From NCBI RefSeq assembly GCF_003334385.1, contig NZ_QOWN01000093.1: a stretch of 3,484 nt of DNA; one strand, written 5' to 3'. This document shows positions 1,711 to 3,484 of this stretch, piece after piece; positions within the stretch are counted from its first letter, which is position 1; each line of letters starts with the position of its first letter. The notes under the pieces were generated by a model, which was given only the letters and a program-made list of their open reading frames with translations, searched no databases and was not told the origin of the DNA. The stretch is from Escherichia coli. GTDB taxonomy: Bacteria > Pseudomonadota > Gammaproteobacteria > Enterobacterales > Enterobacteriaceae. The position numbers were made by a program, and so were the translations under genes.

Positions 1711-2280
1711 TCAGCCACGACTGCAGCCAAAATTGCGCTCACCGGTGCCGTAAGCTTTGGTACTCTCCTTCGCCAGATAGTCAGCACGCTCCAGCACCTG
1801 CTGAAAGCCGGTGTCATCATCGCGTTCCAGCCACACCGCCGGCCTGACCGGAAAATGTGCCAGCGTGTCATAACGTCCGGCATCCACTCCCAGGGCACTG
1901 CACCACGCCTGTTTAATCATCCCGGCCAGTGATCCCGGAGCGCGGTAATCGCCGGCACGACACCAGGTATCCCGGTTGACCAGCAGCATCAGGTGATAGT
2001 GTTTTTTACCTTTGCACTCCCCAAACTCCCGGGCCCAGACGTAATGCAGGGTTGTGGGATGCACGCGTTTACCTTCCCGATGCTTACGTTTCTGGTAAGC
2101 GTCGATTCGGGCTTTCAGGGCATTGATGAAGCGGGATATCACAGCTGCGTCCGTTGCTGCCGGTACATCCGGGAGACGCAGGTCAACCCGCAATGCCGTC
2201 AGGCGGGGATGAACATTCAGTGCGTGCCGCACCGTCTCACGAATACGTTGCTGCCAGAAGGGGTTGTATTTGTAGGTCAT
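1711..2280 (-). CDS. YagK/YfjJ-family (inovirus Gp2-like) protein, 189 aa from the ATG at 2280
   Basis: ORF ends at TGA 1713-1711. The ATG at 2280-2278 has GGAG 8 nt upstream, whereas the track's upstream ATG at 2316 has no purine-rich RBS. The translation (MTYKYNPFWQQRIRETVRHALNVHPRLTALRVDLRLPD ... HYHLMLLVNRD ... KAYGTGERNF) matches my recollection of the YagK/YfjJ family of CP4-type prophage-like elements; not verified by search. Confidence 0.75.
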   Translation of the reverse strand: MTYKYNPFWQQRIRETVRHALNVHPRLTALRVDLRLPDVPAATDAAVISRFINALKARIDAYQKRKHREGKRVHPTTLHYVWAREFGECKGKKHYHLMLLVNRDTWCRAGDYRAPGSLAGMIKQAWCSALGVDAGRYDTLAHFPVRPAVWLERDDDTGFQQVLERADYLAKESTKAYGTGERNFGCSRG

Positions 2281-2288
2281 GGTTAAAT

Positions 2289-2308
2289 CTCCGTATGGTT
2301 CATACGGA
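2289..2308 (-). promoter_or_regulatory. Ribosome-binding site overlapped by a perfect 8-bp inverted repeat (TCCGTATG-GTT-CATACGGA) upstream of the Gp2-like gene
   Basis: The arms at 2290-2297 and 2301-2308 are exact reverse complements with a 3-nt loop. The GGAG Shine-Dalgarno (complement of 2289-2292) lies in the 3' arm of the potential mRNA hairpin, 8 nt before the ATG. Confidence 0.3.
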
Positions 2309-2427
2309 ATAACCACGTCGTAAAAAATGCGCAGAACCCCTGAGGTGACCTCCGGCAGGACACTGTCTCAGGCACTCTGTGATAACCCGAACGGTCATCG
2401 CCGGACTGACGATTGAATTCCCGGCGT

Positions 2428-2449
2428 TGTTTTTTTAATGTAAAAAACA
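2428..2449. promoter_or_regulatory. AT-rich dyad (TGTTTTTT-TAATGT-AAAAAACA) in the divergent intergenic region; candidate operator or promoter element
   Basis: Perfect 8-bp inverted repeat with a 6-bp spacer, midway between the divergent Gp2-like gene and the small zinc-ribbon ORF. It overlaps -10-like hexamers (TTTAAT/TAATGT), with a TTGAAT -35-like hexamer at 2412-2417. Confidence 0.25.
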
Positions 2450-2481
2450 GGTTACGGATAAGGCGTGGAGAGGGAGCGATC

Positions 2482-2673
2482 GTGATATGCAAAAAGAAGT
2501 GCAGGGACTGTGGTAACGCAATTACTCATAATACAGTATGTTGCCCGTATTGTGGCGCTGTCGACCCCTTCGGTTATTACCGGAAGACCGATCGTCTGCT
2601 CTGTTTACTGACGTTACTGCTGCTGATTCTGGTTACCGTTTCAGGCGTCAGTGTATTTGTACTGTTGCAGTAG
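2482..2673 (+). CDS. Small zinc-ribbon membrane protein, 63 aa (GTG start): N-terminal C-x2-C-x9-CC-x2-C ribbon and C-terminal hydrophobic helix
   Basis: GTG at 2482 is preceded by GGAGAGGGAG (2467-2476) at 5-nt spacing; the track's TTG start at 2413 has no RBS. Translation: (M)ICKKKCRDCGNAITHNTVCCPYCGAVDPFGYYRKTDRLLCLLTLLLLILVTVSGVSVFVLLQ, with stop TAG at 2671-2673. The run of ~23 hydrophobic residues is consistent with one transmembrane segment. Confidence 0.5.
   Translation: MICKKKCRDCGNAITHNTVCCPYCGAVDPFGYYRKTDRLLCLLTLLLLILVTVSGVSVFVLLQ

Positions 2674-3005: not shown

Positions 3006-3484
<479 letters not shown>

Follow-up and report, generated by a model that had tools for sequence, protein, structure and literature searches.

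A leader hairpin predicted to sequester the start of a YagK/YfjJ-family nuclease-like gene in an Escherichia coli genomic-island module

The locus and its genomic setting

We analyzed a 3,484-bp stretch of E. coli DNA (contig NZ_QOWN01000093.1; hereafter the window), with particular attention to the 201-bp region 2281–2481. This region lies between a gene of the YagK/YfjJ ("inovirus Gp2") family and a small zinc-ribbon open reading frame (ORF), which are divergently oriented.

1711–2280, minus strand: YagK/YfjJ ("inovirus Gp2") family gene, 189 amino acids, HUH-type nuclease/Rep-like; the gene downstream of the leader
2482–2673, plus strand: small zinc-ribbon ORF with a hydrophobic tail, 63 amino acids, GTG start; points away from the Gp2-like gene

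The Gp2-like protein has the fold and motifs of an HUH nuclease. It matches the Pfam family YagK_YfjJ_C (E = 3.9e-48) and, more weakly, REP_ORF2-G2P (E = 4e-5) over the HYH region, and both the HYH motif with its following hydrophobic residues and a YLAK motif are kept in the protein alignment. NCBIfam gave no match, a PDB sequence search no real match, and PHROGs only families of unknown function. The small ORF combines the pattern CxxC...CCPYCG with a hydrophobic tail and is annotated as a hypothetical protein in most copies of the locus. It is intact in most of them and frameshifted or decayed in copies L005, L006, L007 and L014.

The divergent setting described in the initial annotation is correct, and thousands of E. 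coli island copies share it. Searching 5,426 complete E. coli genomes with 401 bp spanning the region gave 7,394 places in 3,657 genomes, at 84–100% identity; the 65-bp leader alone found 7,288 places in 3,651 of the same 5,426 genomes, with a median of 2 per genome. The best matches of the window to E. coli chromosomes reach 99.9% identity, and 541 genomes contain 80% of it or more. Strain ATCC 25922 has four leader matches, of which the closest is 98.5% identical, and the module is also present in ST131 isolates, with 99.3% identity over 2181–2581. In strain G1/2, the window sequence sits within a decayed genomic island adjoining the nan genes, in the order IS66 copies, truncated and complete zinc-ribbon (DUF7828) genes, an "inovirus Gp2 family" gene, the small divergent ORF, an hha pseudogene and IS3. 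Farther along this island are an AlpA-like helix-turn-helix (HTH) gene, a YfjI-family gene, a GTPase gene and autotransporter fragments. AlpA-family and Hha-family genes lie no more than 1–3 kb away in every copy.

The literature found on the gene consists of island-backbone listings: the same module is listed, with no function stated, as orf38–orf41 of the Shigella SRL pathogenicity island (PMC6980539), and Gp2-like genes are given as a recurrent backbone component of Pseudomonas islands, again with no function stated (PMC12595487). The 201-bp region would be the shared control region of a conserved E. coli genomic-island module, with the YagK/YfjJ HUH-nuclease gene and zinc-ribbon genes on one side and the small zinc-ribbon ORF on the other.

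Inverted repeats in the divergent region

Three symmetric elements had been noted in this region, and a repeat search places all three exactly where they were reported.

2290–2308, no strand: dyad 1, TCCGTATG (2290–2297), GTT, CATACGGA (2301–2308); perfect 8-bp inverted repeat with a 3-nt loop
2342–2352, no strand: dyad 2, GAGGT-G-ACCTC; judged a chance palindrome
2428–2449, no strand: dyad 3, TGTTTTTT (2428–2435), TAATGT, AAAAAACA (2442–2449); overlaps a plus-strand −10 and a minus-strand −35

Chance expectation was estimated from 5,000 dinucleotide-preserving shuffles of the 201 bp, in which perfect 8-bp inverted repeats with loops of 0–12 nt were counted. The shuffle mean was 0.046 repeats per 201 bp, with P = 0.037 for at least one and P = 0.006 for at least two. 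Dyads 1 and 3 are the only such repeats across the whole window (shuffle mean 0.8). Dyad 2 is within chance: the region holds three 5-bp dyads with loops of 0–3 nt where 0.78 would be expected (P = 0.06), and a loop of 1 nt is too short to fold.

Dyad 1 lies at the core of a predicted leader hairpin

On the minus strand, dyad 1 forms the center of a longer stem-loop, H5, at the start of the Gp2-like gene.

2278–2317, minus strand: leader stem-loop H5, 17 bp with a 3-nt bulge and a 3-nt loop; Shine-Dalgarno (SD) sequence and AUG in the 3′ arm; dyad 1 is its core
2289–2292, minus strand: SD sequence GGAG of the Gp2-like gene, 8 nt upstream of the AUG; paired in the minimum-free-energy (MFE) structure
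2322–2327, minus strand: U-tract (UUUUUU) just 5′ of the hairpin, present in all orthologues; possibly a standby/S1-binding site or part of a −35-like element
2283–2303, minus strand: possible upstream ORF (uORF) of 6 codons, MNHTEI*, starting in a conserved TATGAAC and stopping 2 nt before the main AUG; status uncertain

Read as RNA from 2317 to 2278, H5 is CGUGGUUAUUCCGUAUG-AAC-CAUACGGAG-(AUU)-UAACCAUG. The GGAG (2292→2289) lies inside the 3′ arm of dyad 1, as the proposed overlap with the SD sequence had it, and both the GGAG and the AUG (2280→2278) are paired in the MFE and centroid structures. The 40-mer folds with −18.4 kcal/mol, compared to −5.8 ± 1.9 kcal/mol for shuffled sequences (z −6.6), and none of 200 shuffles is as stable. 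The antisense strand is a weaker folder (−14.1 kcal/mol, z −3.95) because two G·U pairs turn into A·C. The predicted unpaired fraction of positions −14 to +3 is 0.19, compared to 0.52 ± 0.14 when the upstream 66 nt are shuffled (0/100 shuffles as low), and this start has the second lowest predicted accessibility among 66 genes of the same loci.

Conservation within E. coli was assessed with ten aligned copies spanning the 84–100% identity range. The arms of dyad 1 are invariant in these copies except for one G→A (L016), which gives a G·U pair on the mRNA strand; in L010-type copies another G→A converts a G·U pair of the H5 stem to A-U. The L006 and L007 types have GTTTCGTT as the loop and the other copies GTT, and the inner stem is kept in 16 distinct E. 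coli variants while the loop measures 3 nt or 8 nt.

We propose, at a probability of about 0.55, that the leader hairpin built around dyad 1 sequesters the SD and AUG and so occludes translation of the nickase-like HUH-nuclease gene. The earlier suggestion that dyad 1 could occlude the ribosome-binding site (RBS) is supported in that the SD and AUG are paired, the stability is far above that of shuffled sequences, the mRNA strand is favored and the pairing survives turnover of sequence across genera (see below).

Two variants of the leader were observed in rearranged loci. In L010 (4001–4078), L011, L044 and L048, the leader (window 2278–2355) is kept and the Gp2-like ORF is replaced, from the start codon on, by an unrelated 23-codon ORF; in these L010-type loci the leader follows a different Gp2-type gene at a distance of 48 nt and precedes zinc-ribbon genes. 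In L049 (1501–1531), only window 2281–2311 is kept upstream of an intact Gp2-like gene, with a fragment of an HNH-endonuclease gene beyond it and the outer 5′ arm gone.

The possible uORF has no obvious SD sequence, and its length and frame vary among copies (6 codons, 23 codons or an in-frame extension). An AUG within the invariant TATGAAC stands at −30 from the ATG in L026–L041, L170 and L174. In the orthologues from other genera, this AUG is in frame and open into the gene in 7/11, which would allow a 10-residue N-terminal extension (MN.N.PES..), and closed by a stop in 4/11.

The predicted SD pairing is kept in other genera and re-invented in paralogues

A protein search identified orthologues with 64–69% protein identity in Klebsiella, Enterobacter, Salmonella, Serratia, Cedecea, Pectobacterium, Rouxiella and Edwardsiella. 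The leader set compared here comprises 11 distinct sequences from these other genera; a Klebsiella plasmid copy was also fetched. In other genera alpA and zinc-ribbon genes follow the Gp2-like gene, and the upstream neighbors differ. The sequence upstream cannot be aligned except for an ungapped 64-nt element ending at the ATG, which is composed, in order, of a T-tract, CYCCGGU, GGTAATGGNTATGAAC, 8 nt, ACCGGAG, 8 nt and the ATG.

Orthologues in nine genera besides that of E. coli retain an anti-SD/SD helix made of different sequence and showing compensatory changes. Across the 11 leaders, CYCCGGU is complementary to the SD region and pairs with ACCGGAG in a 9-bp helix closing a 22-nt loop, within which TATGAA is invariant. 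The helix is paired in 81.8% of cells, compared to 25–42% with slid partners; five pairs are changed on both sides, a number reached by 0/500 shuffles, and the helix is present in the MFE structure of 10/11 leaders. In Edwardsiella, the SD and anti-SD are altered together (CCCUCA with UGAGAGG), in Enterobacter cloacae a GGC/GUC pair triplet has become GUC/GAC, and the flanking pair is G·U, U-A or A-U depending on the genus.

Comparison with this element indicates that the E. coli form is a rewired version, in which the old anti-SD segment appears to pair with the start-codon region and a new anti-SD, UUCCGUAUG, lies beside the loop. The L006 type represents an intermediate form, and the window type carries a further 5-nt deletion. 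The predicted occlusion has been retained through this rewiring, and the sequence has not.

Pairing of the SD has also been re-invented in homologues with unrelated leaders. It is predicted for the paralogue Gp2B (unpaired fraction 0.08, 0/100 shuffles), for an IncI plasmid copy (0.20, 4/100 shuffles) and, more weakly, for L037, an E. coli copy of 83% protein identity with an unrelated SD-pairing hairpin (0.26, 11/100 shuffles); the first two of these three outperform their shuffled controls. The hairpin is a trait of this subfamily and a few others rather than of the whole YagK/YfjJ family. K-12 yfjJ and yagK have no similar leader, so the K-12 transcription-start maps are not transferable.

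These comparisons bear on the notion that the region has no dedicated function, its features having arisen by chance or hitch-hiked on a recently spread island, with the conservation reflecting a short divergence time. The high overall identity of the E. coli copies (84–100%) would fit this, and dyad 2 and two further dyads at 2381–2399 and 2400–2427 (see below) are clearly such features. We nevertheless regard it as distinctly unlikely for the leader hairpin: the SD pairing is kept across genera despite unalignable upstream sequence, has been rebuilt from different sequence in E. coli and arises independently in paralogues, and two 8-bp repeats in 201 bp are rare in shuffled sequence (P = 0.006).

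Searches of wider collections added little. A genome-contig scan with the Gp2-like protein returned two short contaminant-like loci only, viral-contig scans gave one relevant locus or none, and a metagenome scan with GGTAATGGNTATGAA produced 120 chance matches, none adjoining a Gp2-like gene. By eye, the conserved upstream part of the non-E. coli leaders resembles the sigma-28 consensus TAAAGTTT-N11-GCCGATAA, a resemblance absent in the E. coli type; at L030 2925–2975 the sigma-28-like sequence is AAAAGTAT-N11-ACCGGTAA.

Dyad 3 and candidate promoters

Dyad 3 coincides with two candidate promoters that face each other.

2417–2444, minus strand: candidate promoter of the Gp2-like gene, −35 TTTACA (2444→2439), 16-nt spacer, −10 GGGAAT (2422→2417); 8/12 consensus positions
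2413–2441, plus strand: candidate promoter of the small ORF, −35 TTGAAT (2413–2418), 17-nt spacer, −10 TAATGT (2436–2441); 7/12 consensus positions, putative and not called by the scan

Transcripts from the minus-strand promoter would have a leader of ~130 nt. The scan calls this promoter in the common variant L004, as TTTACA-16-GAAAAT (9/12), and its −35 is TTGACA in L015 (promoter 10/12) and TTGGCA in L007. The plus-strand hexamers are identical in 8/10 copies, with a spacer that varies in sequence and length (16–18 nt), and are altered in L006 and L007, where the small ORF has decayed.

The overlap of dyad 3 with −10-like sequences, as initially annotated, holds; its perfect 8-bp form is peculiar to the window. 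Across the copies its T-run consists of 6–8 T, the right arm ends in C instead of A in all other copies, and that arm is altered further in L015, L006 and L007. As RNA it gives a weak hairpin (−4.4 to −5.3 kcal/mol). The symmetry of dyad 3 is probably incidental, because the substitutions that break it in other copies improve the match of the minus-strand −35 hexamer. Dyad 3 thus looks like an AT-rich overlap of the −10 and −35 of face-to-face candidate promoters and not like an operator, and the pattern of substitution points to selection on the promoter hexamers rather than on a symmetric operator.

Next to the dyad 3 T-run, the L006 and L007 types carry a plus-strand terminator-like hairpin, GCTGA-ATTT-TCAGC (L006 4234–4257, ~window 2410–2436), which is followed by the T-run and is not found in the window.

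Dyad 2 and other inverted repeats of the leader

Dyad 2 did not withstand comparison with homologous copies. Its counterpart is GAAGT..ACCTC (ATCTC in one copy) in eight of the nine other copies, and in the ninth, L005, it falls inside a 24-nt deletion; the stretch is the least conserved of the region (79% mean pairwise identity). Dyad 2 looks like a chance palindrome. It sits in the interior of a longer structure.

2332–2379, minus strand: long imperfect dyad H4, arms CAGAACCCCTGAG and CTCAGGCACTCTG, with a 22-nt interior holding dyad 2

H4 folds with −23.3 kcal/mol (z −2.3) on the mRNA strand, compared to −18.7 kcal/mol (z −0.8) on the antisense strand. Most E. coli copies are predicted to form it, and an AC→GT difference of the window from the consensus leaves both affected pairs as wobbles. 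The indications of a functional role for H4 are weak.

Two further dyads, 2381–2399 (GATAACC/GGTCATC) and 2400–2427 (CGCCGG-N16-CCGGCG), make the window's leader fold with very low energy and are broken in other E. coli copies. A structured leader as a whole (210-nt minus-strand fold, z −4.3) was considered and dropped, the hairpins at 2381–2399 and 2400–2427 being window-specific. A terminator or attenuator was likewise rejected: there is no canonical terminator, the U-tract (2327→2322) precedes H5, and 4 nt separate H4 from the U-tract. A scan of 2281–2481 for intrinsic terminators found none. Rfam 15 gave no match in the same interval at E ≤ 1, and none at the gathering score in six related loci.

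The three dyads had been viewed as a suggestive cluster in a divergent promoter region, and might in that case be double-stranded operators through which a dimeric regulator, such as an AlpA-like HTH protein or H-NS/Hha, controls both divergent promoters. Such control would suit a region between divergent genes with AlpA-family and Hha-family genes within 1–3 kb in every copy, and AT-rich dyad 3 does overlap the candidate promoter hexamers. We find no support for a regulator-binding set, and consider this explanation very unlikely. The arms of dyad 1 and its counterparts are 3, 8 or 22 nt apart across homologues, which argues against a dimeric DNA-binding site of fixed geometry, and the candidate promoters are ~110–130 bp away from dyad 1. 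Dyad 2 lacks conservation, and dyad 3 loses its symmetry through the variable T-run and right arm while the hexamers are kept or improved.

Proposed control of the nuclease-like gene

Sequestration of the gene start by the leader hairpin, as proposed above, would operate as follows. In the leader of the nuclease-like mRNA, the 5′ arm CGUGGUUAUUCCGUAUG would pair with the 3′ arm carrying GGAG and AUG, such that transcripts holding both arms should be translated very poorly. Two versions of this proposal may be distinguished by the origin of the transcript. In the first, the gene's own transcript would start at the dyad 3 candidate promoter, ~130 nt upstream, and translation would be constitutively repressed until something opens the stem. 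In the second, a weak start inside the loop, at the −10-like TATGAAC, would give a short, translatable mRNA, and the hairpin would silence read-through transcripts only, as in the fold-back inhibition of IS10/IS50. Co-transcription of both arms, and the repressed translation that should follow, are thus predictions of the proposal. As a standard sigma-70 −10, TATGAAC was rejected: its final T is missing, and just 14 nt separate it from the best −35-like hexamer (TTAACA or TTTACG). It was kept as a weak-promoter sub-hypothesis.

Several observations weigh against this proposal. In E. coli, the outer stem is perfect in the window, but has a C·A mismatch in most copies (−14.1 kcal/mol), and with copies 84–100% identical overall, invariance of the 19-nt element is by itself weak evidence. 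The minus-strand promoter of the window is weak, with GGGAAT as its −10; it is not called by the scan and is a consensus match only. In the other genera, the helix is short with a 22-nt loop, and the predicted accessibility of −14 to +3 is not significantly different from that of shuffled controls. Wobble counts among the orthologues (9 sense-only and 7 antisense-only) favor no strand, and one or two lineages contribute most of the double changes. Occlusion alone does not account for the invariance of TATGAA, for the conservation of the T-tract or for the complete lack of indels. Finally, no such hairpin was found in K-12 yfjJ, yagK and three other family members, including L043 and the second gene in L030.

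A serious rival reading is that the hairpin is a DNA recognition or nick site of the adjacent HUH nuclease, origin- or transfer-like and bound in extruded or single-stranded form, with TATGAAC as the loop or cleavage motif and the overlap with the RBS secondary or autoregulatory. HUH enzymes typically act on single-stranded DNA hairpins near their own gene, as do pMV158 RepB, geminivirus and nanovirus Rep and TnpA-REP. The adjacent gene encodes a protein with the HUH fold and motifs, for which such action near its own gene would be typical; the 11 orthologues show an invariant loop motif with a co-varying stem, and their wobble counts do not favor RNA. In L010-type loci, moreover, the leader persists without its own gene, beside another Gp2-type gene. 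A nick site does not predict, however, that the 3′ arm should be the SD sequence in every orthologue, and also in paralogues whose unrelated leaders lack TATGAAC. In E. coli the motif is half buried (TATG in the stem, with AAC as the 3-nt loop) and the mRNA-sense strand is clearly the better folder, and rolling-circle replication or transfer of the islands is without evidence. We therefore judge a DNA site of this kind unlikely. It is also conceivable, though quite unlikely in our estimate, that the TATGAAC stem-loop serves both ends, as a DNA substrate of the nuclease that doubles as a translational operator of its own enzyme.

Comparison with known systems

Translational occlusion by the leader hairpin would be a familiar kind of gene control, of which this is an undescribed and very abundant instance. 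In the transposase mRNAs of IS10 and IS50, fold-back inhibition pairs the RBS and start codon with a segment just upstream, so that read-through transcripts remain untranslated. The resemblance lies in a mobile-element gene whose RBS and start codon are paired with an upstream segment, and in the −10-like TATGAAC between the arms. The present gene differs from IS10/IS50 in that the −10-like motif is without the final T and the −35 is T-rich and poorly spaced; it encodes an HUH nuclease rather than a DDE transposase, and no antisense RNA partner is evident.

In R1 repA/tap and ColIb-P9 repZ/repY, a stem sequesters the SD of the initiator gene, and a short uORF next to the start couples translation and opens the stem. 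The locus shares with these an initiator-like gene, an SD-sequestering stem and a uORF (2303→2283) that ends 2 nt before the AUG. In contrast to R1 and ColIb-P9, the uORF has no recognizable SD and varies in length and frame, neither an antisense RNA nor a pseudoknot was found, and Rfam offers no matching family.

The origins recognized by HUH Rep proteins (the pMV158 double-strand origin and those of geminiviruses, nanoviruses and circoviruses) likewise offer a stem-loop directly upstream of an HUH-fold gene, an invariant loop motif and a stem that co-varies among relatives. Unlike in these origins, every lineage here uses the SD of the gene itself as the 3′ arm, and the loop in E. coli measures only 3 nt.

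Similarity to RNA thermometers (ROSE, fourU) is seen in the occlusion of SD and AUG, in a gene belonging to a horizontally acquired, virulence-associated island, and in the common variant, which has an internal mismatch and a bulge. There is no fourU or ROSE signature or Rfam match, however, and known thermometers are far less stable than this stem (−14 to −20 kcal/mol).

Other features of the window

Three features of the window lie outside the divergent region. A second zinc-ribbon gene (856–1164) is cut by an IS66 end and annotated as a pseudogene. The hha-like gene (3006–3204) is a pseudogene without its N-terminus, and IS3 begins at ~3483. An inverted repeat at 2790–2826, between the small ORF and the hha pseudogene, has perfect 9-bp arms, GTATTCCGC / GCGGAATAC, spaced 19 nt apart.

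Implications

Genes of the YagK/YfjJ ("inovirus Gp2") family rank with the most common backbone genes of CP4-57/SRL-type genomic islands that still lack an explanation. Should the stem-loop also prove to be a DNA substrate of the nuclease, which we consider quite unlikely, a compact module for rolling-circle-type replication or mobilization would be part of the widespread CP4/SRL-type islands of Enterobacterales. On the translational control that we favor, a conserved hairpin closing off the start points to a DNA-processing enzyme under tight restraint, and the hairpin offers a direct experimental handle on the gene.

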